DNA of 64,000 nucleotides from Obrimoposthia wandeli (GCA_977020255.1 CDROCS010006010.1:1-64000); one strand, 5' to 3'; shown: positions 4,241 through 35,164, counted from the stretch's first letter. Numbers and translations are program-made. The notes: generated by a model not told the origin, from the letters alone.

Positions 4241-7204
4241 TACATATGTGAGTAGTATAAAGTGTCGGTACTAAACCAAAGAACAAAGCCCCGGGTTACC
4301 TTTTACTGCAAAACCATATTGGTGTTGTATGCAGGATTTCGAGACTTGACCTACACCTGGTCTGAAAAACATGCATACTACGCCAACAGTTATAGGTCCC
4401 CCCTGGGGTACCCTTTACTGCAAAAAAACCATATTGGTGTAATATATTGCATATAATATAGTTTAAAAGTAATTTTTGTATGTCTTGTAAGCAAAATTAA
4501 ATAACATGAAATAGCTTTTAATATTTGAAAGAATAAACTTAATAGTAACTTCTACTTGAGATTTAGATTATATACAGTCAGCAAGATACAGCTACTAACT
4601 TTATAATTAAAATATTATTATAGTTTAAAGAAAAAATCACTTGATAAAAACTATAATAATGTGGTAAAGAAATATTGTTTAATATATAAAATGAATTTTG
4701 TAGAAATAAATTATATATATATATGTATTTTTTGTTGTTGTTGTGAATATTACTATTATACTAATTAACGTCCTCAGTTACACTTTCAGTCATACTCTAT
4801 AACATTTTACATATTTTATATTACTAACTTTTTTTTAACTTAATATTTAACTCTTATTAACTTTTATTCACTTGAGACTCTTAATTTTAATATTTTATAT
4901 ATATATTTTTTTAATTATTTAGAAATTTGAATAAAATATGTAGATATTAAGATGATAATCTAATATGTTTGAATAATTTGTTTTATTCAAGCAATGTGAT
5001 TAAAGATTTGGTATTATAATTTATTGACAAAGCTTTCAGTTGGTTTGCTATTATTTTCATGTATTTGGAAATAATTTTGCAATATTCTATACACAGAGAA
5101 TAAAATTGTTTTGTTGAGTAAATTTACTAAAATTTGTAAATATAAATACATTTTAAAATATTTAAAATGTGAAACGAATAAAAATGATAATTTTCAAATT
5201 ATATTTATTAATGCATTTTCATAACCAAGTTATTTGAAAATAAAGAATTTAAATTTATCTTATTATTTTAAAATATTTAAATTAGGGAATGTTATCAAAC
5301 AAGATAATAAATTGTAATTATTTATTTGCATGAATGTGTATAAACTGTTAACTTTAGAGAAAAGATATGAAGGTAAAATATGTGAAAATTCACATCCTCA
5401 TTATTATATTTTTATCAGATTGTTACATCATCTTCATTGATTGATAGTATTCATTTAATAATTAGCTAGTACTCACTTACAGTTTTACATTCACTTGCTA
5501 AAACTCTTACTTTTATTCGCATTCACTTGCATTCATACTTTCATTAATTTACATTCATTCTAACTCTCATTTATCCAAACTATCATTCAAATTCCTTAAT
5601 ATTTTTTTACTAATTTTCATTCATACCTGTACTTGACATTCGTTCTTGCAATCGTATTCTTTCTTACTTGTACTTGTAGCTACATTCATTAATACTTGTA
5701 CTTGCATTCTTTGTTAATTATACTTGATTTTATTTACATTTACACTTGTATTAATTCATACAATCGATTATTAATTTTATTTGTTATCACAAGAGATTTT
5801 TAATATTGTACAAAGTCGAATAATAAATTGAAATACTAAGTTGATAATCGAATATGTACACTAATTTATTTATTTACATATAAAACAATATAATTAAATA
5901 TTTGGTATTCTAATTTCTAAACAAAATTTTCAGTAACTTTGAATAACATGTGTTTACAAATTAATTTTCAATATTCCATAATTTAAATTCGTTAGAATTA
6001 AAAAAAAACTTTCAAAATAAATTTCGAAAAACTTTTACACTTGCAAAAAAATTTGTAACAAAAACCTTTACACTTGTAAATAAATTTGTAACAAAAAACT
6101 TTACTAAATTAAAATTAGTTTTAGTTTACAAATTTCTACTTTAAATTTTTTTAAAAATATTTCAAAATTAAAAGATTACTTGTAATAAATACAAAAATTA
6201 TTTTAAATTTTAACAATTTTTTTTTCTAATAAAAAAATTGAACATTATAGTTTAAAAAAAGAATTAAAATCATCACATAGATTTGAAAATAAATGTTAAA
6301 CAATATAAAATGTTTAGATTCGTTAGAATTTTTACAAAAACTTTACAAAATAATTATATAGTTAAAATTTTTGATTTTAATTTCCTATTTAGAAATAAAT
6401 AAAACATATTCAAAAATTTTAAAAATCTTTCTCACAATAAATACAAAGATAAAAACTATTTACCATTAAATAAAAGTATTAAACATCATAGATTTAAAAT
6501 AATTTTTTTAAAAGTTAGATTTATATAGATTATAAATAACAATTTCAATAAAATTTTTTAAAATACATTTATAAATTAGATGCTTTACAATCATTTGCAA
6601 ATTCTTTTTTAGAATCTGAAATTTATATATAAATATAAAATTTTTATATATTTAAACTTATAATTTGATAATTTAGATTTGTTAGAATTTTCCAAATCTT
6701 TTCTAAATAAATTTGAACAAAAAACTTTTACACTTGCAAATAAATTTATTATTTCCAAAGACATGAAAGAATTAGTAAGAATAACGGTCATTTTAATTTA
6801 ACTTAATAATTTTTAAAATATATATATAGTTTTGTTATTGTTTTTGTTGTTGTTATTATTATTTAATGTAATTATTTGTACACACACTCATTCACTTCAA
6901 TATAATAATACAACTTTTGTGTTTAATAAATTTATTTATTATATATGATTAATTTGAATAGTTGACCAATAATATTAAAGTTAGGTTTTTATATAATTGA
7001 AACACTTTAGTTTTAAAATCATTTCATCATTATGACTCTAAGTACTTTGGATATGTTATATCTTCTTCGCACCAACCTTAAAAAAGAAATAACTTCCCCA
7101 ACTTTAGTTCGATTTTGTGATATATATATTATTCTCAAAAGTGATACTCACAGTTCTCCTACAAGCGTTGGTTCTATTAAACTAGTATAAATTGGATGTA
7201 AAAG

Positions 7205-8149
7205 TTATATTAGATGCTGATATCTAAGTTGGATCTGAATAACCATGTCATTTAACAAAGTATTGTTTATGTTTTCCAGTACTATAGATTTTCTGTAATA
7301 TTTTTTGAATACAGAAAACGTTAGGTTTATTTGATATTACTTATAGTTCTTGCTCGTAAAACTTACCCTGAATTTTTCAAAATATTTCATCGCTCCGATT
7401 CTTATCAAACTTCTTAATAAATGGAGTAGAGCTAATTTTAGAAATTCAAACATTTTTTTTTCGTCTTTCTAACATTTTATTTTTTATTCCTGTCTATCCA
7501 AATATCCATATAGTTTTATCAGTAACATCTACCGGTCTCGTTCCCTTAAGACTAATATGTTCAGATGGATTAAGTGCATACATTATATTGGGCAAAACTT
7601 GGATCCATTTTTTATTTCCTTCTTTAGTGAAATACTTTTTTATTCAATCTCTTAAAGTACGATTAATTCTTTCTACTACTGCTGCTTTGTACTGCAAAAT
7701 TATCTAGAAGTGATTTATATTATTTTGTTTAAATAAACTGGTTGATTATGAAATTCTTTTCCTAAATCAGTTTGCACATTTTGTGGAATGTCCTCTTTTA
7801 ATATTTCTTTAATGGCTTCAAACATAGCTATTGAAGACTTTGCTTTAACTAGAATTGCACGAGCAAACCTGCTAAATACATCAATACATGTTAAAATATA
7901 TCGATATCCCTTATTAATGGAAGAATATGGGATCATCTCCATCAAATCCATTTGCCATAAATTATAAGGGCCGCTGGTTTTGTAAGCTCTAGTTGGAAAC
8001 CTTCTTCTCATCAGCTTGTTCAGGCTTTAGGCTAGCTGGTCGCTCAGCCATTTCTGCGTTTTCTTGTAATTTTGTTTTGTTCTTTTTGCTAATTTTGAAA
8101 CTCCTGTGTAGCCAATTGGATCTTTTGGATTGAACCATATCTTCTCCAT
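7205..8149 (-). pseudogene. Maverick rve-type integrase, disrupted copy
   Basis: ORF 7715-8011 (LWQMDLMEM...CIDVFSRF...QTDLGKEF) is nearly identical to the 12914-13937 integrase. Chromodomain-like end HGYSDPTWISASNI near 7210. Confidence 0.85.
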
Positions 8150-8235
8150 TACAACAATTTAAATAGAAAGAAAATTTAAGTTTAGGTAAAGAAGGGTTAG
8201 CACCCATATCTTTAACTGATTTTAGAAATAATTGT

Positions 8236-8565
8236 TTATGAACGTGTCGCAGCTATAATACTACTGATAATTGAAGCAACAAATGGAATAACAGCCCCTA
8301 TGAAACTACCATTCTGTTTAAGACTAATATTTCGTTTCCTTTTTTTTACTTTTTACATTAGCAATATCTAGAAGAGTTTTTCTATATTTCTTTAATATAT
8401 TTTTCCGATTTCAACATTTACTTGACCCAAAACTATATTAGACAAATCTTCCAATAAATCATCTACAAGAAAGGATTGAATTGCGTTGAGAATAATCATT
8501 CTCTTATTAGAAGAGGCTTTGACTAAAGCTCTAAAATATGATATGTTTCTTTGTATTTTCTTCAT
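8236..8565 (-). pseudogene. pX-like protein, disrupted copy of 12498-12827
   Basis: Reverse-complement similarity to 12498-12827 with indels. Confidence 0.75.
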
Positions 8566-8759
8566 TTTAATAAAAAAGATTCAATTTAAATATTGTTTAT
8601 ATTCGAAGCCATTTAAGTTTTTTTATTTCTAACTACAGATTTGATTAATTTTTTCACTTCTTTTTCTTAATGATTCTTTTTTTTGATTTCTTAGATTTTT
8701 ACTTTACGTTTTACTATCAACTTTGTAAAAGGCATTGCGAATTTATTTTTATAATTGTT

Positions 8760-9280
8760 CTATATTTGTTTATAAACAGTTACTCCCTTAGAATTAAATA
8801 TGTCTGTTAAAACACGTAAATCATCTGGGCAAGCTTGTGTAAAGTCAATAAATATATACCCATGTGCTTGTTTAGCAGCAGCGTGGAATGAATCAACTAG
8901 AAAGTTCTTATTTTGAGGAAATGCCTGTCTGGCCACAAAATCAACAACTGTTTGATCTCTAGGATTTTTAAATAAGACTAAGTAATGTACATTAATATTT
9001 TTTGTTATATGGTGACGTCCTTGGTGAAACAGATTTTGCGTGATAAATATAACTGTTATTTCACGATGTCTTGCAATCTTTGTAAATAAATTATTAAAGT
9101 CCGATTCCTTGTTAGCCTCCTCATACAAATCATCAATTATTATTACATCTTCTTTTTTCAATCTTTCACACCAATTTGCATCAAATCCTTCAATAAATTT
9201 TATACCCTTCAACTTGCAAACTTCTGTTTTGGTTAACCCGCTTTCCCCTCCTCCACCATGATGCCAATAAATATTTTTTC
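8760..9280 (-). pseudogene. A32/FtsK-like packaging ATPase, 5'-truncated copy
   Basis: Walker B IIIDDL and ITQNLF...YLVLFKNPRD motifs; nearly identical to 11851-12318; Walker A missing. Confidence 0.9.
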
Positions 9281-9329
9281 TTAATGAAAAATTTTTTTGA
9301 TTTTTAGACTTTGCCTAAACATTTTACTA

Positions 9330-9682
9330 TCAACTTTTTAAAATAGTTACTCCCTTATAATTAAAGATATTTTTAGAACACGTAAATTATATGGGCAAGC
9401 TTGTATAAAGTCAATAATTATATTCCCGTGTGCTTGTTTAGCAGCATCATGGAATGAATCAAACAAACAGTTCTTATTTTAGGGAGATTCTTGTCTGACC
9501 ACGAAATATACAACAGTTTGATATCTAGGATTTATAAATAAAACTATGTAATGTACATTAAAATTTCTTGTTCTATGATGACCTTGGTGAAAAATATTTT
9601 GAGTGATAAATGTAACTGTTACTTCAAGATGTCTTCCAATATTTGTAAATAAACTATTAAAGTCCGATTCCTTGTTAGCTTC
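9330..9682 (-). pseudogene. C-terminal half of the outer (older) Maverick packaging ATPase, cut by the nested insertion
   Basis: EANKESDFNSLFTNIGRHLEVTVTFITQNIFHQG starts exactly at the TSD 9677-9682. The N-terminal half resumes at 22114. Confidence 0.85.
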
Positions 9683-9785
9683 AGTAGGTGGATGTGTCCG
9701 GTCTAATCCACACCCCCCTCTGTCCTTTAAAACCGTGTATGTGTGTGGAGTGAAATTTTGTGCATGTGTGTGGAGTGAAATTTCA
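9683..9785 (+). repeat. Left terminal inverted repeat of the Maverick
   Basis: About 100 bp matching the reverse complement of about 22010-22113, with mismatches. Confidence 0.9.
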
Positions 9786-10124
9786 TGTATGTGTCCATTC
9801 CATCCAAGGGGTAAGAAAGGGGTACCCTCACCCACCTCCATTTTAAAAATTTTACTGCGAATCTCAAAAGTGGTTAGAGAAAACCACGGGAATCCATATT
9901 TATTGGCCCCGGAGGCTTATCGCAGACGACATTTTAAATAATATATTACTACTATTTTTTAGAAAGATTTTAGTTTAATAAATTACTGCATGTTAAATAT
10001 CTATGTCAGTTTTAGAATTTCTAGGATAAAAAAATCGGTCAGATCTATATAATTTAGAGGAGAAAATACGAAAAAATGAATAAAACCGATTACAATTTAT
10101 TATATGCAAAATGAAAGAAAGAAG

Positions 10125-10607
10125 TTAAAACATAGAAATATGAGCACGTTCAATTTTCCACATAGGCAACTTTGTCCCCATTTCATCTTTCTTGTAACCA
10201 TAAAGTCGAATTGTTACAGTCCATTGCTTCTTTTTCGGAAACGCATCAATATCAACATATCTTCCATAGTCATCTAGAAATGCTTCATCGGGTCCTCGAA
10301 TATAAAATTCGTTTTTATTGAAAGTAAAATTCGGAACTGCCTTTTCAATTTTCTGGTGAAGATATTGAAAATCTGTTTTTTGAATATTTGATAGATAGTA
10401 GCTGAACTTTCTTCTTTCAATTGTCACAGGATTTACTAAAGCAATCAGTTGAGCCTTCTTCAAGAATCTGACTTTGTATTTGAAATATTGTTTTACTTCT
10501 TGATACATATCCTTATCCGATTCTTCAAATATTTCTAAATCTTCGTCACCGCTTAATACCCGTTGGCTATCCTCCATCGTTGATAATTGTCTTTGATATG
10601 AATGCAT
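10125..10607 (-). CDS. Maverick accessory protein X1 (160 aa, intact), possible OB-fold ssDNA-binding protein
   Basis: Uninterrupted ORF with homologs at 23386, 37078 and 49100. The C-terminal WTVTIRLYGY...PMWKIERA pattern suggests a viral SSB (inference only). Confidence 0.6.
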   Translation of the reverse strand: MHSYQRQLSTMEDSQRVLSGDEDLEIFEESDKDMYQEVKQYFKYKVRFLKKAQLIALVNPVTIERRKFSYYLSNIQKTDFQYLHQKIEKAVPNFTFNKNEFYIRGPDEAFLDDYGRYVDIDAFPKKKQWTVTIRLYGYKKDEMGTKLPMWKIERAHISMF

Positions 10608-10832
10608 TTACTGTGATTTGTCCTCCAATGGCGCATTCTTTTATACTAATTTCTAACAAAAACATGAATCTCATTGGTTAATATAACAAAAGCATTGATT
10701 GGACTAAATTTGATTGGAAGAAATTTTTCATTTAATTATATTAGGTTTGCAAGATAATTACAAGAAACGTGCAATAAAAAAGCAGATTCAGACATATATA
10801 AAGAAGATTTTACAGAATACAATTTCAGTCTA

Positions 10833-11334
10833 ATGAAACTCGTAAATATAAATTATAAAGGTAGAACAGAAGATGATGTTTCGTACTTACCATTCAATGA
10901 ATGGAAGCCGAGACAATATGAAAGAAAAAGTTTGACAATTTCACAGTTGTTATTTTTCCTACAGGTTAGTTTTTTATTTTATTTTCATATTGAATTCTTT
11001 AGGAAATTGTCATGTTATGGGATGCAAAATACCAATGCTTGGGTTCAATTTACCATTTGGAATTCAAATCACTGCAATACAATCAATCACGATTTCGGCT
11101 AATCTCGGGAAACAGATAAATCTTTTTAAAATTGCAGAGAAAATGAAAGAAGAATGCATCTTTGAACCAGAAATTTTTTCTGCTCTCAGTTATTTGAAGT
11201 TTAAACCGCTATGTGTAAATATATTTTCCAGTGGTAAAGTTATGATATTGGGATTGAAAAATTTTGATTATCCAGACATTGTTGAATTGATTTTAGAAAA
11301 TATATCTTATTACATCTTGTTATCTTTTCTATAA
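10833..11334 (+). pseudogene. TATA-binding-protein (TBP)-like gene, two repeats, one 38-nt intron (10965-11002), frameshift in exon 1
   Basis: Repeat 2: SANLGKQINLFKIAEK...FEPEIFSALSYLKFKPLCVNIFSSGKVMILGLK matches the TBP core. Splicing GTTAGT...TTTAG restores repeat 1, VVIFPTG|NCHVMGCK. An A-run length change near 10925 shifts the frame. Confidence 0.8.
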
Positions 11335-11353
11335 ACAAACCCGTTTAAACTTA

Positions 11354-11635
11354 TTGTTTCAAATGAATAATACTATAAATAGAGACAATGAATTGGATCG
11401 TCTTGCCGAGGAAATATTTTCTGGAAAAATTAGGGGTAAAGAAATTTTATCAGAATTAAAAAATAAAGATATAACAAGAGATAACATTGAAATATTGGTT
11501 AGATCACACGTTATTCGAGAATTTAGAAATCGTACACAAATAAATAAAATTATATCCAAATATTCATTAATTAATTTTTGTATTTCATCTACAATAGCTC
11601 TAACATTGTACATTTCAATAAGGAAACTTCTATGA
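11354..11635 (+). CDS. Small Maverick hypothetical protein
   Basis: Intact 93-aa ORF between TBP-like and ATPase, with positional homologs at 22519-22710 and 36211-36402. Confidence 0.6.
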   Translation: MFQMNNTINRDNELDRLAEEIFSGKIRGKEILSELKNKDITRDNIEILVRSHVIREFRNRTQINKIISKYSLINFCISSTIALTLYISIRKLL

Positions 11636-11673
11636 TAATATAAACAATATTTAAAAATGAAAGAGTATATGCA

Positions 11674-12318
11674 ATGGAGCTAAATAATAATGCTGTATTT
11701 CAAATAATTGGTCCCAGTGGAAGTGGAAAGACACATTTCGTATGTAAATTGTTGCAAAATGAATCTCTTTTCAAATGTAGTTTCAAACATATTTATTGGC
11801 ATCATAGTGGAGGAGGGGAAAGCGGATTAACCAAAACATAGGTTTGCAAGTTGAAGGGAATACAATTTATTGAAGGATTTGATGCAAATTGGTGTGAAAG
11901 ATTGAAAAAAGAAGATGTAATAATAATTGATGATTTGTATGAGGCTAACAAGGAATCGGACTTTAATAATTTATTTACAAAGATTGCAAGACATCGTGAA
12001 ATAACAGTTATATTTATCACTCAAAATCTGTTTCACCAAGGACGTCACTATAGAACAAGAAATCTTAATGTACATTACTTAGTTTTATTTAAAAATCCTA
12101 GAGATCAAACCGTTGTTGATTTTGTGGCCAGACAAGCATTTCCTCAAAATAAGAACTTTCTAGTTGATTCATTCCACGATGCTGCTAAACAAGCACATGG
12201 GTATATATTTATTGACTTTACACAAGCTTGCCCAGATGATTTACGTGTTTTAACAGACATATTTAATTCTAAGGGAGTAACTGTTTATAAACAAATAGAG
12301 AACAATTATAAAAAATAA
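11674..12318 (+). pseudogene. A32/FtsK-like DNA packaging ATPase with one in-frame stop
   Basis: ATG 11674, Walker A GPSGSGKT, Walker B IIIDDL, ITQN and FKNPRD motifs; TAG at 11839-11841. Confidence 0.95.
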
Positions 12319-12325
12319 ATTCGCA

Positions 12326-12466
12326 ATGCCTTTTACAAAGTTGATAGTAAAACGTAAAGTAAAATCTAAGAAATCAAAAAAAAGAATCATTAAGAAAAAA
12401 GAAGTGAAACAATTAATCAAATCTGTAGTTAAAAATAAAAAAAAACTTAAATGGCTTCGAATATAA
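12326..12466 (+). CDS. 46-aa Lys-rich basic peptide (candidate virion core/DNA-condensing protein)
   Basis: MPFTKLIVKRKVKSKKSKKRIIKKKEVKQLIKSVVKNKKKLKWLRI*, 21 of 46 residues K/R. Fills the gap between ATPase and pX-like; homolog at about 8590-8735. Confidence 0.55.
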   Translation: MPFTKLIVKRKVKSKKSKKRIIKKKEVKQLIKSVVKNKKKLKWLRI

Positions 12467-12497
12467 ACAATATTTAAATTAAACTTTTTTTATTAAA

Positions 12498-12827
12498 ATG
12501 AAGAAAATACAAAGAAGCATATCCTATTTTAAAGCTTTAGTCAAAGCCTCTTCTAATAAGAGAATGATTATTCTTAAAGCATTTCCATCCTTTGTTGTAG
12601 ATGATTTATTGGAAGTTTTGTATAATATAGTTTTGGGTCGAGTAAAAATTGGAAATCTGAAAAATATATTAAAGAAATATAGAAAAACTCTTCTAGATAT
12701 TGCTAATGTAAAAAGTAAAAAAAGGAAACGAAATATTATTCTTAAACAGAATGGTGGTTTCATAGGGGCTGTTATTCCAGTTGTTGCTTCAATTATCAGT
12801 AGTATTATAGCTGCGACACGTTCATAA
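12498..12827 (+). CDS. Conserved Maverick small structural protein resembling adenovirus pX (basic body, xGG cleavage site, hydrophobic tail)
   Basis: Intact 109 aa ending KQNGG|FIGAVIPVVASIISSII, comparable to adenoviral pX MRGG|ILPLLIPLIAAAI. Confidence 0.75.
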   Translation: MKKIQRSISYFKALVKASSNKRMIILKAFPSFVVDDLLEVLYNIVLGRVKIGNLKNILKKYRKTLLDIANVKSKKRKRNIILKQNGGFIGAVIPVVASIISSIIAATRS

Positions 12828-12913
12828 ACAATTATTTATAAAATCAGCTAAAGATATGGGTGCTAGCCCTTCTTTACCTAAATTTAAATTTTCTTTCAAT
12901 TCAAATTGTTGTA

Positions 12914-13937
12914 ATGGAGAAGATATGGTTCAATCCAAAAGATCCAATTGGCTACACAGGAGTTTTAAAATTAGCAAAAAGAACAAAACAAAATTACAAG
13001 AAAACGCAGAAATGGCTGAGCGACCAGTTAGCGTACAGTCTGAACAAGCCGATGAGAAGAAGGTTTTCAACTAGAGCTTACAAAACCAGCGGTCCTAATA
13101 ATTTATGGCAAATAGATTTGACGGAGATGATCCCATATTCTTCCATTAATAAGGGATATCGATATATTTTAACATGTATTGATGTATTTAGCAGGTTTGC
13201 TCGTGCAATTCCAGTAATAGCAAAGTCTTCAATATGCTTGAAGCCATTAAAGAAATATTAAAAGAGGACATTCCACAAAATGTGCAAACTGATTTAGGAA
13301 AAGAATTTTATAATAAGCAAATTCAATCATTATTTAAACAAAATAATATAAATCATTACTCTGTGTTTTCACAATACAAAGCAGCAGTAGTAGAAAGATT
13401 TAATCGTACTCTAAGAGATCGAATAAAAAGTATTTCACAAAAGAAGGAAATAAAAAATGGATCCAAGTTTTACCTAAAATAATACATGCATATAATCACT
13501 CTGAACATAGAGGTCTCAAGGGAATGAGACCTGTTGATGTTACTAATAAAAACTCTATGGACATTTGGATGAACAGGAATAAAAAAGAAAATATTAAAAA
13601 AGCTAAATATAAGAAAAACGAATATGTTCGAATTTCGAAAAATAGCTCTACTCCATTTATTAAAAACTTTGATCAGAATTGGAGCGATGAAATATTTTGT
13701 ATAAGTAAAATTGATCAAAAGAGTAATCCAATAATGTATACTATTAAAGATGCTGACAATAATATCGTTCACGGTAAATTTTACGAGCAAGAACTACAAG
13801 TAATATCAAATAAACCTAGCGTTTTCCGTATTCAAAAAATATTTAAATCTAAGGGTACAGGTAAACATAAACAATACTTTGTTAAATGGCATGGTTATTC
13901 AGACCCAACTTGGATATCAGCATCTAATATAATATGA
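12914..13937 (+). pseudogene. Retroviral-like (rve) integrase with C-terminal chromodomain; two frameshifts
   Basis: DDE motifs WQIDL, QTDLGKEF, VVERFNRTL; chromodomain YFVKWHGY. Split across ORFs 12860, 13234 and 13524. Confidence 0.95.
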
Positions 13938-14976
13938 AGTCTATGTATATGGTTTTACCTAGTAACGGATGTCCGAAGACTCAACCAGATAATTACGCTA
14001 GTAGCTTTATTATCGATTGGGAAGGAGAATGGGAAGCGGCTTTAATCAAATTTTCTTTTTATTATTCTCCAATTACTATCAGAAAAAACTCACATATTTC
14101 GTTTACAAAAGAAGTTGATCATGAAAAAGCAACTAAAGTTGTGATCATGTTTGATAGTAAAGGAAAATTCTTTTACAATTGTATAGATAAAGAAGTGAAA
14201 GTAATATATGAAAAAAACAAAGTCAGATTTAAAAATCGATCAAAACATTTTCAACCTATTCAAATTATATTCGAATCTGGAAGAGAAGCTCTTCAATTCG
14301 GTCTTGATAGTGGACATGTAGTAGGTATGAAGAGATCTGATATTGTCTCATCAAAATTGTTTAAAAATGTTCCTAGTAGAGTGGTAAGAGTGTTGTTAGT
14401 TGAAACGAGACCAAATACTGTAGTGGAACTGAAAATGTTTTCAAAAGATTATAAAATAGATAGTGAAGTGAATTTCTGTAAATTAATACAGAAGGAATGT
14501 AGTGAATATTTGGATAAATGTGAAACATTAAAAAATGGTAAAATAACGTTTACAGTAAAAAGCAATATAAAACGAGTTTCATTTGATGATAAAATCGCTA
14601 AAAACCTTGGTTTAAACAGAAATACCTTTGAAACCATACAATAAAAACCATAAAAGCTAAAAATAAGGCAAAACTTTTAAATGCTGTTAATCATTTATAT
14701 ATTTATACTAATTTAATAGAACCAACGCTTGTAGGAGGACAGCGAGTTCCACTTTTGAGAACAATATGGATATCTAAAAATGAAACTAAAGATGGTGACG
14801 CTGTCGGTATGTGTATAGATCAACCAATGTATCTTCCAGTTTCTCTCTTTTCTATAAACAATATTGAAGTAAATATTAGAGATGATTCCGGACAACTAAT
14901 AGATTTCACGTACGGGGCCAAGACAAGTTTAACAATACATTTAAGAATACAAAATGACGAATCTAGCAATAATTGA
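13934..14976 (+). pseudogene. Minor capsid protein (penton-like, single jelly-roll), frameshifted
   Basis: N-terminal YMVLPSN...DN..SSF..WEAAL and C-terminal YTNLIEPTLVGGQRVPLLR...MYLPV...IEVNIRDDSGQLIDF...LTIHLR motifs. Confidence 0.85.
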
Positions 14977-15320
14977 GGCTTATAGTCAAAGCCAACAAAG
15001 TGGAGAATTACCATATTTTGTTGGCAAACAATATGGATCTGGCTGGCTTAGAACATTAGGTAGATATTTAAAAGAGACTCGGACATTTTATATCAAAATT
15101 AGGAAAGGATTACCTTTCGTCTAATGACAATAAACTAATACCAACTTTTAAGAAGCATGGGCTTGATGAACTTGATAATGTTTAACCTGAAGTTGCTAAT
15201 TTGATTAGAAAACGTAAATCAAATAAAAGACAAGGAGGTAGTGGATTTAAAAGTAAAAAGAAGCAAAAAATTAATATAAACAAACGTAAGAAAGTTGAAG
15301 GAACAATATTTGCAAAATGA
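14954..15320 (+). pseudogene. pVI/cupiennin-like amphipathic protein upstream of the capsid gene, frameshifted
   Basis: ELPYFVGKQYGSGWLRTLGR...KRQGGSGFKSKK...GTIFAK*; its TGA overlaps the capsid ATG. Confidence 0.65.
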
Positions 15321-16546
15321 GTTGCGCCAAAACCGAATTGTGTATTTTTGATAAACCACTTCCACAAGTAGTTGTAGATAATACTTCCTTTGAAGAAATA
15401 TTTCTAGTTAACTCACTTTCAGGAACCACTTTAACCGAATTAGAATTTAATATGAATGGTTCCAATAGCGAGTATTTAGATTTGAATGATACTTTGCTTT
15501 ATATTCAAATAAAAGTATTAAAACGGGATGTTACTAATTTAGATGAAAATGCCGATGTAACACCTGTAAATTATCTCTTTAATTCTTTATTTAGTGATGC
15601 CATTGTTACTCTTAATAATGTCAAAATTGAAGGTGGAAATTCTTCCTATGCTCATAAAGCTTTGATTGAAAGTCTTTTGAATTATAGTACTGATACTCAA
15701 AATACTAATTTGGCAACCATTGGTTATGATAAAACGGTCGCAACTCGCAAAGAATCGATTACAGGTTCTAAAGCTTACGAAATGTGTGGGTCTTTGAGAT
15801 TGAATTTCTTTGAATAACCGAAATATTTAATTCCTGGTGTTAATGTACATCTTCGTTTGAAACTTAATAAATGGCATTTTTCTTTGATAAGCACAGACGT
15901 TCTAAAACCTAGACTTGATATTTTGAATGCAAAATTGTATGTTCGAAGAGTTAAAACCGAGCAATCAGTTTTAATGGCACATAATATAGGAATGGAAAAA
16001 AACAATGCTTATTATCCTATTAGAGAAACTAAACTTATATCTTATTCTTTAGGTACGGGTACACAAGCTTTTAATAAGGATCAGATTTTTGGTGATGTAA
16101 GATTACCGAAATTCATTTTAATTTCTTTTCAAAAAACTGCAAAGTATCTAGGAAATTATACGACAGATGCACCTCAATTTGACAATCTTTATGTAGGTTC
16201 AGTGACACTTTCAAGAAATACTGATTATCGCAAAACATATAAAACAGATTTCGAAGGTAATGCTTATGCTTTGGCTTATACGCAATCTATTATTCGGAAT
16301 TTGGGCCAACTAGATAAAAATATAAACAATGGTATTTCTTTCACTGAGTTTAAAAGTAGCTGCCAGTTCTTCACATTCGTTTTGGCACCAGACTTTGATA
16401 TAAACCAATGCCAACTACCAAAGGATGGAAATTTACGACTAGAATTTAAGTTCAATGCAGCTTTAACACATCCTACTACGGTGCTTATTTATGGAGTGTT
16501 TGATTCCGAAATACAAATCAATAAAAACAGAACTGTCATATTATAG
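15317..16546 (+). pseudogene. Major capsid protein (double jelly-roll, hexon-like) with one in-frame stop
   Basis: MSCAKTELCIF...EF.MNGS.SEYLDLNDTLLY motif. TAA at 15815-15817, then the same frame continues (PKYLIPGVNVHLRL...FTFVLAPD...GNLRLEFKF). Confidence 0.93.
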
Positions 16547-16547
16547 A

Positions 16548-16938
16548 ATGAAGTAAGACATTTTTTAAATTTATATTTATTAATTTTTATTTAGTTCAGT
16601 ATAAGTATAAGAATCAGCAGAGAAGGTCCTGGGTGATAAATTCAATGGAGTTTATCCTATTGATATGAATCCAATTTTTCAATATGGAGGTTACACTATC
16701 AATACTCATACTTCGAATTAAACAGAAGAACATTGGATAGCTATTTATGTTAGAGAGTGGACAATACATGTATTTGATCCACTTGCAATGTATTATCCAC
16801 AAAACTCGTTTCAACTATTCAAAAAGGACGAAGAAGAGTATTTTACAACAAGATACAATATCAGGATCCTGAGACGAGAAACTGTGGACATTTATGTATT
16901 TTATAGTTATCGTTGCAAAACGATTAGTGTGTTATAAA
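16548..16938 (+). pseudogene. Adenain-like cysteine protease with a 42-nt intron (16553-16594), disrupted
   Basis: ATG AA|GTAAGA...TTTAG|T gives MNS... Catalytic motifs EHW, FDP and Q...NCG are present across stops and a frameshift. Confidence 0.85.
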
Positions 16939-17178
16939 AATAAATATTTTTAATTTTTTTTTAAATCCCTAAAAATATAAGGGTAAAATAATAAAAGACA
17001 TTAGACGAAATTTCTTTTTAATACATTTATTAAAAACAACATCACAGTGAGATCTATCAGCAAAGATAAGGTCCATCCTAAAAAATGTATTGAAATAACA
17101 AAAAGTTAGAGTCAAGGTGCCATAGGGATCTAAAATTTTAAAAAACTAATCTAAAAAAATTCAAAAAATGAAAACCGT

Positions 17179-17694
17179 TTAAATTCTGAAGTGTCCATAA
17201 GCCAGGCTAACGTTTTTTTCTACCCAAAAGCGCTTGTCGTCATTACTACTCAAAGTGATTTTGGTTGATTTATGGGAATACAGTTGATGGGCTCTTGAAA
17301 TAAATCTAGTTTGCTCAACACTTTCAATACACCCAGTATCGTAAACTTTCCGGTAGGTCTCATGTGTAAAATTGTTTCTTCCCACACCCTTTGCTTTCAT
17401 TGAACATGTATTATTAGATGCATGTAAACTGTAGCATTTAGGGCGTAGGAAAATACAATCATCATACGAAACCTGTCCCTCGCTTTCATCCTTAAATTTC
17501 CCGATAATATCCTTTAAACTCATAGAATGTAGAGGATGGTTAGCGGGATATTTATGGGTATCTAATAAGTTGTCCCTAAACATTGCCGGTAATAATTGAT
17601 TATATAAACTAACATTCCTGTATTCTAAAAAGAAAGAGTCAGTGTCAGTGTAAACGGGTTGAATCACTGCCACTGGAATTGGAGCAGGTGAGGC
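17179..17694 (-). pseudogene. pPolB C-terminal fragment (motif C to thumb)
   Basis: YTDTDSFF, GKFKDE, FLRPKCYS, KAKGV, DDKR motifs. The exonuclease and N-terminal regions are absent. Confidence 0.92.
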
Positions 17695-18194
17695 CTATGA
17701 ATCGCGCACCAATTGCACGATATCCCTCTTCTTGTTGTTGGCCGTGAAACAGGATAGGTGAACTCGATGTTCAAGAAAGAAGTCTCGAAACTCCTTCTCC
17801 TCCATTGTTCTGCAGAAGATACAGACGAATAATTGAAGCCCGCGAGACTTTGTCCGATAGTAGGCGGACATTATCTCCATGCAGGTCTCTCCTCCATGCA
17901 AAGCCGAAGCACCACAATATGCTGGAAACAGGATACAAGTAATATGAAATAATAAATATTAATAAAGAAATAATAAGTATAGATTCTTACCATAGTCATT
18001 ATTTCAAATAGTCGGGGATTTTAATGAAGAAAGTGTTTGCTTATATACTAAAATTTATGCACACATGCTCTTTTCCTATTGGATTAAAAAATTGAATTTT
18101 ATTAAGAAGGATTGTTTATCTGTTAAATGGTCGAAAAAAAAAATTTTATTCCTCCAATCAAAAGAATTATTTGTAATTGAATTAGAAGAATTGT

Positions 18195-18683
18195 TTATCT
18201 ACATGTCAAGTAATAATAAGATAGACTTAAACATTTTTTATATGCGTAATGGTCACCATGATTACGATATGGACAGCAAATATTTCCTGGAATTTTTAAT
18301 AGATGATCACGTGAAATATTTAAAGTATTCAACCTCAATTTGGGAAAATAATTTTTTAAAGTCTTATACTTTTTGCCATTTATTTCATCTAAAACATAAA
18401 AAATTCCATTTTAAATATCAAAATTATATTTTATTGTTTCGAAAATGCATATTTCACAAAAAGCCATATGTCCTTCTTTCCATTTTAATAAATGAAAATA
18501 ATTAGTTAGATATAAATTAGTAAATTTTTTCTTATAATCTAAACTTTTAAACGGGATATATATTTGAAATATGAAATGCAAAGGATTAAAAATGTTGCAT
18601 ACATCCATAATACATAATTCTTTTATAATATAATCACCATTTTTGTTAATGAAAGCCTCAAAATCTATGATATATTCCTGCAT
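18195..18683 (-). pseudogene. Maverick accessory gene with DEDD-nuclease-like N-terminus and Cys/His C-terminus, frameshifted
   Basis: IIDFEAF...IIKEL, then in another frame FYVLDEINGKK...ICCPYRNHGDH(Y/C)AYKKC*. Homologs at 32527-33015 and 59485-59690. Confidence 0.65.
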
Positions 18684-18867
18684 AATTATCTAAATTTGCA
18701 GCAAATCCCGTTGTTTATAACGAAAATAATCATTAATCAAAAATTTATTAAAATAACAAAGTACTCAGGATTCAGTCTTTCATGTTAATATTGGTATATA
18801 TTGTCAATTCTCTTATGAATATTAAAATAAATTATATTAAATGTAAACATACCTAAATATTTCGAAA

Positions 18868-19050
18868 TTAAATTACATAATTTATCTCCAACAATTTCCA
18901 CAGTATCATTTTCTGAAAAGTAATTTTTTTATAATCTTCCATTAAATCTGGAGATAATTTTATGTATAACTTATTCCAATTTTTATTATCCATTTTACAA
19001 AATACATTATATATAATTTTGTTTATATTTAGACAATAATGTAACATAAT
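18868..19050 (-). CDS. Small Maverick hypothetical ORF
   Basis: Open in both duplicate copies (33200-33406); function unknown. Confidence 0.35.
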   Translation of the reverse strand: MMLHYCLNINKIIYNVFCKMDNKNWNKLYIKLSPDLMEDYKKITFQKMILWKLLEINYVI

Positions 19051-19078
19051 CAATAAAGAAAAAATAATAATCAAAATT

Positions 19079-19384
19079 TTATTTTTTTGTAGAAGGACCC
19101 TCTTCCGGTTTAATCTGGAGTATTCTCTTTCTTGCAGTACGCCGAACATCCTCCATCTCTTCTCTTCTTTTTTCATCCACCTTCCTTTTTTCCATTTCGA
19201 TCTTCTTATTCCATTCCACGATGCGACGTCGTTCTGCAAGCCTCCTATCTTGTATATCCACCCGACGATTCCACTCGGTCGCGACAGCAGTATACAGATT
19301 CTGATTAAGGACCCTCTTTCTTAAGTCCCCTTTCTTCTCATTTATTCTGATGTTTGCTTCAATCTTCGTCACCAGACTCTTCAT
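19079..19384 (-). CDS. Charged coiled-coil-like Maverick protein (101 aa)
   Basis: Intact in both copies (33412-33717); E/K/R-rich helical composition. Confidence 0.6.
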   Translation of the reverse strand: MKSLVTKIEANIRINEKKGDLRKRVLNQNLYTAVATEWNRRVDIQDRRLAERRRIVEWNKKIEMEKRKVDEKRREEMEDVRRTARKRILQIKPEEGPSTKK

Positions 19385-19616
19385 TTTAATGAATTCATTT
19401 TTTAATTATGAAGAGGTTAATAAATTTGAACCTATATATATAAATTTAAGATATTTTTTAATCTAATTAAACTATATATTTTTATTTATCAAATGAGTGT
19501 TTAATAAATATATAACTTATCATTGCATTTAAACCTAATAAACTTAAAGATAGTATTTTAATATTTCTAAATTTAAATTTTTTTAAAAATAAATTTTAAG
19601 AAGAAAAGACATGAAA

Positions 19617-20820
19617 TTAATTTTTATAAATTATATTCTTAAACATCTTTACGAAGTCATCATTAGGATCATCCGGATCGAAATCCCTCCGACTAAGTAT
19701 TATTGGAGAAAGCGGTACTGGCTCTTTCTTCTTTGGCCGTCCTGGTTTCTTTTTCGGCTTCACAGGTTGTTGTACAGCAATTGTCCTTATCTCAGGTTAG
19801 CAACCTTTGGGAGGAGGTGCAGCCGATGTTGAGGGCCCCGACATAGAAGTCCTCTTCCGTGGGGCTTTCTTCTGTTTCTCCTCCTTCTCACGCTGAAGCT
19901 GGCGTGAAACGGCATCCTGTTGCCCTCGCGAATCTTGAAGCATTGCCGGTGTATACTGTTCCGCCAGGAATTCATCCAACCCAGCTTCATCCCAGGCCCT
20001 CTTCAAGTTCTGACTGGTTGTTGGAGATGCAGTCTCCCAAGCCTTGGTCAAATTTGATGTCTCCTGTAGGCGTCGTTGACTTGACGGTGGACTAATCTCG
20101 ATCGGTGAGACTGAGATCCTCTCGTATAGAATTGGCCCGTCGTCCACTGGAGATGAGAGAATATCCTGCCGTCCAATCACCGTCTCAGAAGAATGTTGAA
20201 TTGAGGTGCTACATTTTCTCGAGCGCTTCGTCTTCTTCACTTCTGCTCGCTTCGTCCGTTTCTTGGGGAAAAGAGTAATTTCTCCCCATGTCTCCTCAAT
20301 TATCTGGACGGGTTCCTGCAAAATATTAATAAAATTTAAATAAATAAATAATTTACCTCAATGACGGGCAGGTTAGCCTGTTTCACCAACTTGGCCTTCT
20401 TCCGAGTGTGGGTTTTGACCCTATGGCGTTGTGGTTTCTTAACTGCCGCTTGCTTCCTATCCACCGGTTGAATAGGCGTCGGCTCTTCGTGGATGTTTTC
20501 CATCTATGTGAATTATTAAATTTAATATCTAAATAATTTACATTAAAATTATCTGGAGACGCTAGGTATCGGAGCTGACTCCTGAATCCTTGGTTCTTCT
20601 CTTGGAGTTGAGCTGGCCAATGAGGCTTCTTCTTCCAACAGGTTCGCTCTTGCTGCTGCTTTTCCTTCGCTCACCACCGATGAGTCTTGACTATCTAAGT
20701 CAATGTATTGCAACGGTGGTGGCGTTTGCTGCTGCACTGGAAAGAGATCCCCATAGAGTTGAACATCCGAAGGGGCGGGTGGTGTAGGTTTTGGGTATGA
20801 CACGGGTCGTCTACAAGTGT
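19617..20820 (-). pseudogene. Intron-containing, disordered Maverick protein with a C-terminal AT-hook
   Basis: The 41-nt GT-AG intron 20316-20356 joins ...LPVIE|EPVQII in frame. Candidate 38-nt intron at 20504-20541. KKKPGRPKKK at about 19725-19755, reached via a frameshift. Confidence 0.6.
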
Positions 20821-20829
20821 AGTCACCCA

Positions 20830-21900
20830 CCACCCACCGACTTACACCTACCACCCACCGACTTTCACCCAACACCCATCGACTTTCACCCACCACCCAA
20901 CACCCACCGACTTTCAACCACCACTCATTGACTTACACCAACCACCCACCTACTTTCACTCATCACCCACCGACTTATACCTACCACCCACCGACTTTCA
21001 CCCAACACCCATCGACTTTCACCCACCACCCAACACCCACCGACTTTCACCCACCACTCATTGACTTACACCTACCACCCACGACTTACACCCACCACCC
21101 ACCAATTTATCCCCACCACCCACCGACTTTCACCCATCACCCAACGACTTTCACCCATCACCCACCGACTTACACCCATCACCCAACGACTTTCACCCAA
21201 CACCCACCGACTTTCACCCAACACCCCCGACTTTCACCCACCACCCAACACCCGTCAACTTTCACCCATCACCCACCGACTTTCACCCATCACCCAACGA
21301 CTTTCCGCCAACATCCAACGACTTTCACCCAACACCCACCGACTTTCATCCACCACCCCCGACTTTCACCCACCACCCAAAACCCGTCGACTTTCACCCA
21401 TCACCCACCGACTTTCACCCATCACCCAACGACTTTCACCCATCACCCACCGACTTACACCCATCACCCAACGACTTTCACCCAACACCCACCGACTTTC
21501 ACCCAACACCCCCGACTTTCACCCACCACCCAACACCCGTCAACTTTCACCCATCACCCACCGACTTTCACCCATCACCCAACGACTTTCAGCCAACATC
21601 CAACGACTTTCACCCAACACCCACCGACTTTCACCCACCACCCCGACTTTCACCCACCACCCAAAACCCGTCGACTTTCACCCATCACCCACCGACTTTC
21701 ACCCATCACCCAACCGACTTTCACCCATCACCCAACGACTTTCACCCAACGACTTTCACCCAACACCCACCGACTTTCACCCAACACCCCCGACTTTCAC
21801 CCACCACCCAACACCCGTCAACTTTCACCCATCACCCACCGACTTTCACCCATCACCCAACGACTTTCAGCCAACATCCAACGACTTACACCCACCGTCT
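20830..21900. repeat. C/A-rich subterminal minisatellite (about 21-bp unit, CACCCACCGACTTTCACCC core)
   Basis: Direct inspection; about 450 bp in the duplicate copy (35165-35615). Confidence 0.95.
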
Positions 21901-21970
21901 AACACCCAACACCCATGGAAATATGTGATATTGGCTCCATCCGAAAGGCGCGAAAAATGTTTTTGGGACC

Positions 21971-22113
21971 CCCCCTTGTCCTTTAAAACCGTGCATGTGT
22001 GTGGAGCAAAATTTCACTCCACACACCTACAGGAAATTTTACTCCACACACTTGCACGGTTTTATAGGACAGAGGGGAAGGGGTGAGGATTAGACCAGAC
22101 ACATCCACCTACT
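21971..22113 (-). repeat. Right TIR of the Maverick with an internal hairpin
   Basis: Ends ...CATCCACCTACT, followed by the TSD. Two arms of about 37 bp (21978-22014 and 22034-22070) are reverse complements. Confidence 0.9.
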
Positions 22114-22389
22114 AGCTTCCTGTTACAAATCATCAATTATTATTACATCTTCTTTTTTCAATCTTTCACACCAATTCGCATCAAATCCTTCAATAAATTT
22201 TATTCCCTTCAACTTGCAAACGTATGTTTGGGTTAATCCACTTTCACCTCCTTCACCATAATGCCAATAAATATTTTTGAAACTAGAATTGAAAATAGAT
22301 TCATTTTGCAACAATTTACATACGAATTGTGTCTTTCCACTTCTACTGGGACCAACTATTTGAAATACAGAATTATTATTTAGCTCCAT
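22114..22389 (-). pseudogene. N-terminal half of the outer packaging ATPase
   Basis: MELNNNSVFQIVGPSRSGKT...IIIDDL*; contiguous with 9330-9682 once the insert and one TSD copy are removed. Confidence 0.9.
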
Positions 22390-22732
22390 TACATATACTC
22401 TTTCATATTTAATATTGTTTGTATTATCATAGAAGTTTCCTTATTTAAAATTATAATGCCAGATCTACAGTAGATGAAATACAAAAATTAATTAATGAAT
22501 ATTTGGCTATAATTTTATTTATTTGCGTTCGATTTCTAAATTCTCGAATAACGTGTGATCTAACCAATATTTCAATATTATTTCTTGTTGTATCATTATT
22601 TTTTTAATTCTGATAAAATTTGTTTCACCTCTATTTTTCCTGAAAAAAAATTCGTAGACAAGAGAATCCACTTCATTGTCGATATTTATAGTATAATTCA
22701 TTTGAAACAATTATTAATTGAAATAGGTTTGT

Positions 22733-23215
22733 TTATAGAAAAGATAACAAATTGTAATAAAATATATTTTCTAAAATCGATTCAAGAGTGTATTGATAAT
22801 TCAAATTTTTCAATCCCAAGACCAAAACTTTACTACCAGAAAATATTTTTACACATGGCAGTGTAAGCTTCAAATACCTGAGAGCAGGAAAATTTTCATA
22901 TTCAAACATGCATTCTTCTTTCATTTTCTCTGCAATTTTATAAAGATTTACTGGTTTCCCGATATGTATTTGATATTATGAAAATTGATTTTAATTCCAA
23001 ATGGTAAATTGATCTCATTCAGCGGTGTTATGCATCCCATAACACGACACTTCCTAAATAAATTCAATATGAAAATGAAATAAAAACTAACCTGAAAAAA
23101 ACCCTGTGAAACCATCAAACATTTTCACATATTGTTTCGGCTTCCAATCATTGAATGGTACGTGCAAAATATAATCTTTTATTCTTCCTTTATAATTTAT
23201 TATTACGGGTTTCAT
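22733..23215 (-). pseudogene. TBP-like gene of the outer element, same 38-nt intron (23054-23091)
   Basis: MKPVIINYKG...FTGFFSG| exon 1 is in frame; exon 2 is frameshifted; FEYENFPALRYLKL..CVKIFSGSKVLVLGLK. Confidence 0.75.
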
Positions 23216-23385
23216 TAGACTAAAATAGTTTTTCTGTAAATTCTTCTTTACATATGTCTGAACCTGCTTTTTATTGCACAATTCTTTTAAATATTTTGCA
23301 AATATGGATTTAGTTCAATCAAATTCAATAGTTTAGTTATGTTAATCAATGAGATTTATGTCTTTCATACAATTTAATAAAAAAA

Positions 23386-23637
23386 GTGGAAAATAAATAT
23401 CTAGTTAAAATTTTTACAACATCTGATATTGATCAATTGAAACATATTTTAGGGTTTTCCATACCATATTATGCATATGAAGGAAATTCTTTCCAGCTTG
23501 AAACTGATACCAGTCTGGCTTTTAGAGATGACCTAGGATATTTGATTGTTCCAATTTTAGATGAAGAACTATGGAATATTTCAATACGTCTTAATGAATA
23601 TTATGCTGATGGTTATGAAAAAATACAACATCTGTGA
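23386..23637 (+). CDS. Accessory protein X2, a diverged paralog of X1 (10125-10607)
   Basis: NSFQLETDTSLAFRDDLG...WNISIRL aligns with NEFYIRGPDEAFLDDYG...WTVTIRL. Confidence 0.55.
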   Translation: MENKYLVKIFTTSDIDQLKHILGFSIPYYAYEGNSFQLETDTSLAFRDDLGYLIVPILDEELWNISIRLNEYYADGYEKIQHL

Positions 23638-24637
23638 ACTCTGAGTGAAGCCAATATGGTGTTTTATATTTGATTATTTAAATAAATATTTTCTCCTAAT
23701 AATACTAATAATATGAGTATGGCGTACATATTTTTGTCCGAAGAAGCATAAAAATGTAGTCATACTCATACAAAATTATCATCTTAAATCTCGTCAACGG
23801 CTAGTCGATGGGGTCAATATGGATTCCTGTGGTATTCTATACTAACTTTTAAGTTTCATCCTTGGAGGTAGGATGTGAAATTCATATAATTTCCCTCCAT
23901 ACACACATGTATGATTTTAAAGAACAAAGGTTGTTTTTGTAATTATTTGTAGACTTTGACTTAATCGTCTTTTTGGGATACAGATATCGCGACAAAATGT
24001 TACGATAGGCAAGATTAAACGTTGAATCGATGATGACCAGTTCTGTCTAGAACTTGTTGAATTTACTAATAAATTTATACCACTTTTTTGGTAATTAAAT
24101 TTCGAATTTACAACAACAAAAAATTATATAAATTGTCATTCTTTATAAATATTGTATTTGTATTTTTATATCCGACATCAATTATGAAATACTTTGGTGA
24201 TAATTATATTTTTTGTAGTCAAAGATGATATGAGAAAATTTTAGCTGCATTGGTCTTTTGAGCAGTTGGAACTATTTACCCACCTGAGTTTTAGTGGATA
24301 TAAAAAAATGAAATGTTACAGACGATTCCCTTAAAGAAGTAAATAAACAAGATTCATGAAATTTTATTAAAAAAAGATAAAATAAAATCTTCTTTCATGA
24401 TGGGTGATAAAAATATACGTTCTTTGTCATTTATAGTTGTCGACAATGTAGAAAAATGTATAGAAAAATATCTAAGTTCAGAAAAACATGAAAAATCTTT
24501 ATAAAACAAATCAATTGAGTTCTTGAAATTTTGATGTGCAATCTCAAAACATGAAACATAATTGAAATACAATCTATTTAATAGATTATCAGGATTTATT
24601 CTCGTTAAAACTGATTATCTTAAAAAAAACAAGATTA

Positions 24638-27170: not shown

Positions 27171-27180
27171 TAGGCCTTGC

Positions 27181-28799: not shown

Positions 28800-29308
28800 A
28801 ATAATGATTTTTCTTGAATGAAAGAACTTCAAAGGGACCTTTAAAATGCGATTGATTGTTTGCTCCATTTCTTCCACATCGATTTTGATACATCAAGCTA
28901 ACTTTGTCGCCAATCTTATTTTCAAAATTGGTTGTCTCAAGGTCGACAATCTCATCTCAAATGTTAATCATGGAATGGACCCAATCATTATATGATACGT
29001 CTTCATTAGGGTTACCTGGGCATTTTGAAGTGCAAAATTTGTGTACGAATTGAAATTAAAATAGGGTGTAAAACATCTGGCAAAAGATTCTACTACCCTC
29101 TTTCCCATTATTCGATTGTTCCTCTCTGTCAGTATGTTAGCCTGCTCCTGAAACACTGATGCTACTGGCTGTTGACTCTTTCAGAAATGCTGCTCACAAA
29201 TTCTCCTCCATGATCATTGATCTGAACATCTACAGCACATGAATGTCTACATACAATATATTCGAATATAAATTCCATAACCAAATCCGCAGTCTCATCC
29301 CTAATGCT
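28800..29308 (-). pseudogene. Ty3/Gypsy-type integrase remnant, truncated at the duplication junction
   Basis: INDHGGEFVSSIS, QANILTERNNR and KTYHIMIGSIP resemble the rve core (xDQGxEF, QxNGxxERxN, TPYxLMxGRxP). Confidence 0.7.
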
Positions 29309-29650
29309 GAGGCTTATAGTCAAAGCCAACCAGGTGGAGAATTACCATATTTTGTTTGTACACAATATGGATCTGGCTGGCTTAGAACATTAGGTAGATA
29401 TTTAAAAGAGACTCGGACATTTTATATCAAAATTAGGAAAGGATTACCTTTCGTCTAATGACAATAAACTAATACCAACTTTTAAGAAGCATGGGCTTGA
29501 TGAACTTGATAATGTTTTACCTGAAGTTGCTAATTTGATTAGAAAACGTAAATCAAATAAAAGCCAAGGAGGTAGTGGATTTAAAAGTAAAAAGAAGCAA
29601 AAAATTAATATAAACAAACGTAAGAAAGTTGAAGGAACAATATTTGCAAA

Positions 29651-30879
29651 ATGAGTTGCGCCAAAACCGAATTGTGTATTTTTGATAAACCTCTTCTACA
29701 AGTAGTTGTAGATAATGCTTCCTTTGAAGAAATATTTCTAGTTAACTCACTTTCAGGAACCACTTTAACCGAATTAGAATTTAATATGAATGGTTCCAAT
29801 AGCGAGTATTTAGATTTGAATGATACTTTGCTTTATGTTCAAATAAAAGTATTAAAACGGGATGGTACTAATTTAGATGAAAATGCCGATGTAACACTTG
29901 TAAATTATCTCTTTAATTCTTTATTTAGTGATGCCATTGTTACTCTTAATAATGTCAAAATTGAAGGTGGAAATTCTTCCTATGCTCATAAAGCTTTGAT
30001 TGAAAGTCTTTTGAATTATAGTACTGATACTCAAAATACTAATTTGGCAACCATTGGTTATGATAAAACGGTCGCAACTCGCAAAGAATGGATTACAGGT
30101 TCTAAAGCTTACGAAATATGTGGGTCTTTGAGATTGAATTTCTTTGAATAACCGAAATATTTAATTCCTGGTGTTAATGTACATCTTCGTTTGCAACGTA
30201 ATAAATGGCATTTTTCTTTGATAAGCACAGACGTTCTAAAACCTAGACTTGATGTTTTGAATGCAAAATTGTATGTTCGAAGAGTTAAAACCGAGCAATC
30301 AGTTTTAATGGCACATAATATATGAATGGAAAAAAACAATGCTTGTTATCCTATTAGAGAAACTAAACTTATATCTTATTCTTTAGGTACGGGTACACAA
30401 ACTTTTAATAAGGATCAGATTTTTGGTGATGTAAGATTACCGAAATTCATTTTAATTTCTTTTCAAAAAACTGCAAAGTATCTAGGAAATTATACGACAG
30501 ATGCACCTCAATTTGACAATCTTAATGTAGGTTCAGTGACACTTTCAAGAAATACTGATTATCGCAAAACATATAAAACAGATTTCGAAGGTAATGCTTA
30601 TGCTTTGGCTTATACGCAATCTATTATTTGGAATTTGGGCCAACTAGATAAAAATATAAACATTGGTATTTCTTTCACTGAGTCTAAAATCAGCTGCCTG
30701 TTCTTCACATTTGTTTTGGCACCAGACTTTGATATAAACCAATGCCAACTACCAAAGGATGGGAATTTACGACTAGAATTAAGTTCAATGCAGCTTTAAC
30801 ACATCCTACTACGGTGCTTATTTATGGAGTGTTTGATTCCGAAATACAAATCAATAAAAACAGAACTGTCATATTATAG
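29651..30879 (+). pseudogene. Major capsid protein, duplicate copy
   Basis: Shares the TAA at 30149-30151 and adds TGA at 30323-30325 plus a frameshift near 30780. Confidence 0.92.
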
Positions 30880-30880
30880 A

Positions 30881-31270: not shown

Positions 31271-31510
31271 AAATAAATATTTTTAATTTTTTTTTAAATC
31301 CCTAAAAATATAAGGGTAAAATAATAAAAGACATTAGACGAAATTTTGTTTAATACATTTATTAAAAACAACATCACAGTGAGATCTGTCAGCAAAGATA
31401 AGGTCCATCCTAAAAAATGTATTGAAATAACAAAAAGTTAGAGTCAAGGTGCCATAGGGATCTAAAATTTTAAAAAACTAATCTAAAAAAATTCAAAAAA
31501 TGAAAACCGT

Positions 31511-35160: not shown

Positions 35161-35164
35161 CACC

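Follow-up and report, generated by a model that had tools for sequence, protein, structure and literature searches.

How a Maverick came to lie within the packaging ATPase gene of a related Maverick, and whether the arrangement records a single clean integration, is the question raised by a 64,000-nucleotide stretch of the Obrimoposthia wandeli genome (GCA_977020255.1 CDROCS010006010.1:1-64000; hereafter the window). It is highly probable that a 12.4-kb Maverick/Polinton copy entered the broken relic of a family member, leaving a 6-bp duplication at its two borders, and that it was placed there by the retroviral-type integrase of the family, acting at near-random sites in a genome crowded with thousands of copies.

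The inner element occupies positions 9683..22113 (12,431 bp), with both ends present, and is internally deleted and non-autonomous. It is bounded by a terminal inverted repeat at 9683..9783 (plus strand), which begins AGTAGGT, and by its counterpart at 22009..22113 (minus strand), whose final letters are ACCTACT. Both repeats were delimited by alignment of the ends, which pair over ~101-105 nt and are roughly 90% alike with one 4-nt gap. The 6-bp sequence AGCTTC stands directly outside them on the plus strand, at 9677..9682 and 22114..22119, as the preliminary description had claimed, and the two flanks agree when treated separately. An uninterrupted ATPase copy lies at 8760-9278, and each flank was aligned to it singly: positions 9119-9114 are the last matched by the right flank, and the same six are the first matched by the left. 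A genome search additionally found 3,710 exact matches to uninterrupted paralogous sites of the target's subfamily, each with a single hexamer. Because the flank alignments overlap at six positions and these uninterrupted sites exist, the AGCTTC pair is a true target-site duplication, and target DNA was neither gained nor lost. Empty sites, which had been proposed as a check on the insertion, are thus abundant as paralogues, while no empty allele of the exact nested locus was seen among short read-derived contigs of the same sample.

Integrases of the rve type cut their target in a staggered fashion, six bases apart, and the gaps are filled in by repair. The available text of a recent study likewise states that rve-INT usually produces 6-bp duplications (PMC12220804). 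The insert would have entered the relic's ATPase gene through such a 6-nt staggered cut, with host repair filling in the ends. The duplication and the empty paralogous sites together support the earlier claim that one member of the family was inserted into another by an integrase-type reaction, and the claimed opposite orientation is borne out by the inner ATPase on the plus strand and the outer ATPase on the minus strand.

By its ends, its duplication and its predicted genes, the inner element is a Maverick/Polinton; it combines AG/AGT-type inverted repeats and a 6-bp duplication with a rve integrase, a polymerase B, an ATPase and an adenovirus-type protease. Its gene content is best read beside two full-length copies on contig C12 (17.5 and 17.4 kb), each with both ends, 6-bp duplications and a polymerase region containing stops. 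The insert is 96% identical to these copies over 7.5 kb; relative to their 17.4-17.5 kb, its polymerase region is short by ~3.7 kb and a further ~0.5 kb is missing close to one end. A plus-strand gene, TBP-like and spread over two frames (10833..11334; PF00352, E 8.5e-12), possibly contains a short GT..AG intron at 10965-11002. Ten homologues of its predicted product were found at 37-65% identity, and no relatives were found in viral_contigs. An A32-like packaging ATPase gene broken by a stop follows at 11622..12318 (plus strand), with an E-value of 0.009 for the insert's piece; the C12 counterpart matches PF04665 (E 1.7e-6) and has A32/FtsK-like character. Domain searches also place a rve integrase with chromodomain at 12914..13937 (plus strand), split across three frames and frameshifted in the insert; the C12 copy matches PF00665 (E 1.5e-8) along with PF00385.

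The structural genes are more tentatively assigned. The plus-strand gene at 13934..14976 we take to be a candidate minor capsid gene, from its position in the usual Maverick layout; no Pfam match was found to it in either the insert or the C12 copy. A candidate major capsid gene at 15317..16546 (plus strand) is split by one stop, and its halves are 57-60% identical to a 407-aa homologue. Atlas hits for it reach 0.97 to clusters in which 18% of members carry PF21738, with a recognition value of 1980, under the tool's mark. PF21738 itself was matched weakly (E 0.039) in one of 46 homologues, and sequence searches of the PDB gave no hit, so that the assignment serves as a lead only. The broken remnant of an adenovirus-type protease lies on the plus strand at 16600..16960, with approximate limits. 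Its Atlas feature hits (0.95-0.97; recognition 2691) fall in clusters where 14-62% of members carry PF00770; a direct Pfam match was absent in the search of the C12 copy. A C-terminal remnant of a protein-primed DNA polymerase is found on the minus strand at 17179..17694, with the deletion join at 17646/17650, and the polymerase B of the C12 copy matches PF03175 (E 5.5e-18). A 21-bp minisatellite (20823..21896) adjoins the right end. As the ATPase, integrase, capsid candidate and protease are all broken, and only the C-terminal remnant of the polymerase is retained, the insert is not an intact autonomous Maverick. With its polymerase mostly gone and its integrase frameshifted, it would either have decayed in place or have moved with proteins supplied by other copies.

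The target is represented by two pieces on the minus strand. The downstream piece (9279..9682) comprises the 3' part of the ATPase gene and a short downstream stretch, contains stops and frameshifts, and is 87% identical to other copies. The upstream piece (22114..23692), which has no terminal repeat, holds the ATPase 5' part, a small ORF and a TBP-like remnant, and resembles other copies at 83-86% overall and ~93% over the first 300 nt. Together they form a relic of ~2 kb without ends, of which only 404 bp lie to the left of the insert. The adjoining minus-strand DNA at 7095..9278 belongs instead to a second, younger piece of family DNA (3' part of the ATPase gene, a small ORF and integrase; no terminal repeat), which is 92-97% identical to the inner element and is joined to the relic at 9278/9279 by A-run microhomology. 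The claim of an outer Maverick therefore stands insofar as a family member was the target; an intact outer element is rejected, as neither piece of the ~2-kb relic has a terminal repeat nearby. In the relic ATPase, a stop occurs two codons before the insertion point and further stops and frameshifts occur after it, and these are common to the duplicated copies. Judging from divergence, the target appears to have been dead already when the insert arrived, and an older family copy would by then have decayed to a fragment without ends. Fibronectin-like and membrane-span exons are also present near the locus and point to a probable animal host.

The composite nature of these flanks bears on a different account, in which recombination or self-integration between family copies brought together flanks from different elements and no clean insertion took place. 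The locus is indeed rearranged, with the chimeric join at 9278/9279 and several duplication breakpoints inside the insert, and its flanks are unequal in their likeness to relatives (93% over 307 nt versus 87% over 346 nt). However, the hexamer variant is shared by both flanks, which come together at six common positions of the target, the best genome matches beside the junctions are 91-92% and 94-95%, and the upstream piece falls to the 83-86% given above when its full length is considered. We accordingly regard recombination as very unlikely.

Integration of the insert into the relic was followed by duplications, which order the events. The second unit of a tandem duplication (29308..45545, plus strand) repeats 14974-29307 and begins with sequence of the insert, microhomology there being 1 nt at most. 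It carries a copied right junction at 35799..35811 (plus strand), where the inverted-repeat end meets AGCTTC at 35805/35806. Since the copy begins within the insert at 14974 and includes a second right junction, the order set out in the preliminary description (target, insert, tandem duplication) holds. The polymerase deletion is older than the tandem duplication, as it is present in both units. Production of the tandem duplication by integrase or by homology was rejected, because the breakpoint at 29307/29308 is without terminal repeat and shows at most 1 nt of microhomology. In the assembly as a whole, there are three copies of the left junction, two of them on contig C483, and two copies of the right one. 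One left junction on C483 lies within an 18-kb stretch at the contig end that is 98-99% like window positions 1-15556 and may represent the other haplotype; the second lies in a 96-98% paralogue that ends at window position 16629. The fusion of relic and younger fragment at 9278/9279 predates the C483 duplication. Non-homologous segmental duplications after integration would account for the extra copies of the left junction on C483 and of the right junction at 35805. Within the duplication, Maverick DNA diverged faster. Gene conversion by other copies of the family is not supported as the explanation: the changes are scattered and mostly private, with both states found elsewhere for 8 of 79.

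A region so saturated with repeats could also owe its arrangement to an assembly artefact. The start of the window is a contig end, which overlaps with the terminal part of C483, and the duplicated units show a mosaic likeness. Against this, the assembly contains three left and two right junctions, whose copies are 96-99% identical with private changes on both sides, and a 6-bp duplication in register is not expected from a misjoin. A read-derived contig of the same sample crosses the left junction, spanning 9655-9706 without difference; as it has fewer than 31 letters on either side, it does not formally bridge the junction. An artefact is hence the least probable of the accounts considered here, and we give it hardly any credence.

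The exact 25-nt family end occurs 16,983 times in the 1.35-Gb assembly, and an exact 20-nt ATPase anchor occurs 8,994 times genome-wide; a hand count in which 31 of 40 listed sites contained the anchor suggests ~11,600 ATPase sites. Among 26 random stretches totalling 201,408 bases (40 were drawn, 14 of which fell beyond contig ends), the family covers 21% of the DNA (bootstrap 11-37%), rising to 23% with a second family included and standing at 14.7% when matches of at least 90% identity are counted. Family cover of the flanks around ends is 8-12%. The family likely fills between a tenth and a quarter of all DNA in the genome. Its copies are mostly 94-97% alike. Of 20 long end pairs, 12 have identical 6-bp flanks, as do 6 of 8 short elements.

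The number of landings in other Mavericks, a count proposed at the outset, was taken from an unbiased set made up of the first 100 ends in genome order, of which 94 were fetched and 91 were distinct, all on contigs C1-C13. Seven of the 91 adjoin family DNA, and a single nested copy on C6, flanked by a TSD, supplies two of these; a separate set of 30 ends, ranked by likeness, was left out of this rate. Random landing while the family grew would be expected to nest about half of its final share, near 10%. The observed value is compatible with 10-11.5% (binomial p 0.3-0.6) and lies below 21% at p 0.001. Across all loci, 17 of 135 ends adjoin family DNA, and these are scattered over element positions 1652-17000 in both orientations. 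As 7/91 fits the random expectation of ~10% and the sites are scattered, nesting is ordinary in this genome, or slightly avoided. Nesting is thus common, at a rate no higher than the family's share of the genome predicts, and the special status implied for it by the preliminary description is not supported.

These counts also speak to the proposal that the integrase prefers family DNA or this particular ATPase site, such that a hot spot inactivates rival copies. A general preference for family DNA was rejected, as 7/91 shows no enrichment over a share of 10-21% and nested sites are scattered along the element. The case for a hot spot comes from contig C4289, where a family end is joined at 66687/66688 to the identical ATPase nucleotide used by the nested insert. 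This junction is independent of the nested locus, because its target carries the hexamer of the other subfamily and the end inserted there differs in its interior. Two independent junctions thus share one nucleotide, and the surrounding 31-nt interval contains no further junction genome-wide, against an expectation of 1.75 with every target in place. A post hoc calculation puts the probability of a second junction at a given position at ~0.03-0.06. On the other side, a partner duplication for the C4289 junction was looked for and not found, read contigs hint at end-joints elsewhere in the ATPase gene (9271, 9279, 9343 and 9626), and the hexamer matches only in part the family's weak preference for a palindromic site (A at -5 in 50/91 and T at -2 in 52/91). 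The C4289 repeat is accordingly a weak hint of a hot spot, and preferential targeting is an improbable explanation for the nested locus beside near-random integration.

The family resembles animal Maverick/Polinton elements, as these are described in the available portion of PMC8097293, in its length of ~17 kb, ends starting AGT, 6-bp duplication, integrase, polymerase, ATPase, protease and capsid candidates, and in that most copies are defective both there and here. It differs from the same description in its end motif, which is AGTAGG and not (AG)3 or (AGT)2, in carrying a TBP-like gene, and in copy number, with ~8,500 insertions where vertebrates have a median of 8 and reach 287 at most (PMC8097293). 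Nested Mavericks are reported, in the accessible part of PMC12289875, for the protist Trichomonas vaginalis, in which >4,700 copies make up ~40% of the genome; the 1.35-Gb genome considered here holds more copies, which form a smaller share. Polinton-like DNA reaches 12-16% in some invertebrate genomes (Unio delphinus, 16.2%), and the available text reports that less than 20% of regions in three bivalves are near-identical, whereas a single family with copies 94-97% alike dominates here (bioRxiv 10.1101/2025.04.19.649669). TBP-like genes are annotated in some MELD viruses and adintovirus relatives in the accessible portion of bioRxiv 10.1101/697771; here, as predicted from sequence, the gene is instead a regular component of a family of thousands of copies. 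A literature search found no paper with Maverick-in-Maverick insertion as its subject, the mention for T. vaginalis aside, and the portions available of 10.1101/2025.02.07.637071, PMC12220804, PMC6431247 and 10.1101/2023.08.22.554363 contain nothing on self-nesting.

The nested insertion preserves a clean trace of Maverick integrase at work, and one that can be dated, but adds no new mechanism. Extrapolation of the 7.7% rate to ~8,500 insertions gives an expectation of several hundred nestings genome-wide, which could serve as markers for the relative age of subfamilies and for quantifying target choice. A broader reading, which we offer tentatively and hold to be possible rather than probable, is that the burst of this single Maverick family is perhaps larger than any other in animals, with at least ~8,500 recent insertions that are 94-97% alike and occupy 15-25% of 1.35 Gb, a TBP-like factor in each full copy, hundreds of kin-nested copies that record the order of the burst, and one ATPase site that is perhaps a preferred landing place. 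The size of the family burst and the TBP-like gene are more notable than the nesting itself. The discussion section of PMC8097293 presents the view that large Mavericks are rare in animals since ectopic recombination removes them, and the copy number found here bears on that view.

The two units of the tandem duplication (14974-29307 and 29308-45545) are unevenly diverged, with 97 of 7,409 positions differing in the Maverick-derived part, as compared with 8 of 3,008 in the tested adjacent non-Maverick parts. The two further copies of the left junction region on contig C483 are 99.9% alike, while each is 97-98% alike to the window over the same stretch. This uneven divergence among duplicated copies may stem from homogenisation, may reflect mixed haplotypes, or may be owing to faster mutation. 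Read by eye, the stretch that separates the two C483 copies (L046, G000:C483:30001-40000) holds LTR-retrotransposon-like ORFs of reverse transcriptase, integrase and envelope-like types.

Within the tandem duplication, 24638-26605 and 27144-27332 (with copies in 38331-43664) are likely exons from the 3' part of a gene for a host membrane protein; they include an exon that encodes a membrane span, together with an acidic ORF. The 22-residue repeats of this ORF number 17.7 units in one copy and about 32 in the other, and an adjoining 22-bp minisatellite has 19 vs 88 units.

Elsewhere in the genome, a one-sided family junction at G000:C4289:66687-66688 (L054, L072) lies at the same ATPase nucleotide as that of the nested insert and represents an independent event. 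Additionally, a short family element at G000:C8:149367-152542 (L123) is situated inside an inverted duplication, its two flanks being mutually reverse-complementary.

A TBP-like gene (10833-11334; remnants at 22754-23106 and 36446-36798) is a regular component of the family and may contain an intron of 38 nt (10965-11002); ten homologues of it are unnamed and 78-173 aa long. Within the family polymerase (L107:8470-9975 and L105:8265-9356), one stretch resembles endonuclease VII and is of HNH type (PF02945, E 1e-5). An HNH insertion is described as characteristic of the pPolB2 group (10.1101/2023.08.22.554363), of which the family polymerase would be a candidate member.

A 2.4-kb element at 58172-60572, flanked by TACTAT/TAATAT and with AGTAGGTAGAAGG ends and polymerase remnants, belongs to a second Maverick-like family, which has 4,877 exact ends in the assembly. 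Of two further Maverick remnants, at 3655-4076 and 49128-49801, one is an old piece of polymerase, with 41-46% identity at the protein level, and the other is a fragment of the main family. Across the whole assembly, the 16,983 exact ends of the main family correspond to ~8,500 insertions. These vary in size between miniature elements of ~180 bp and copies of 17.5 kb, and DNA of this one Maverick family is estimated to make up 10-25% of the assembly.
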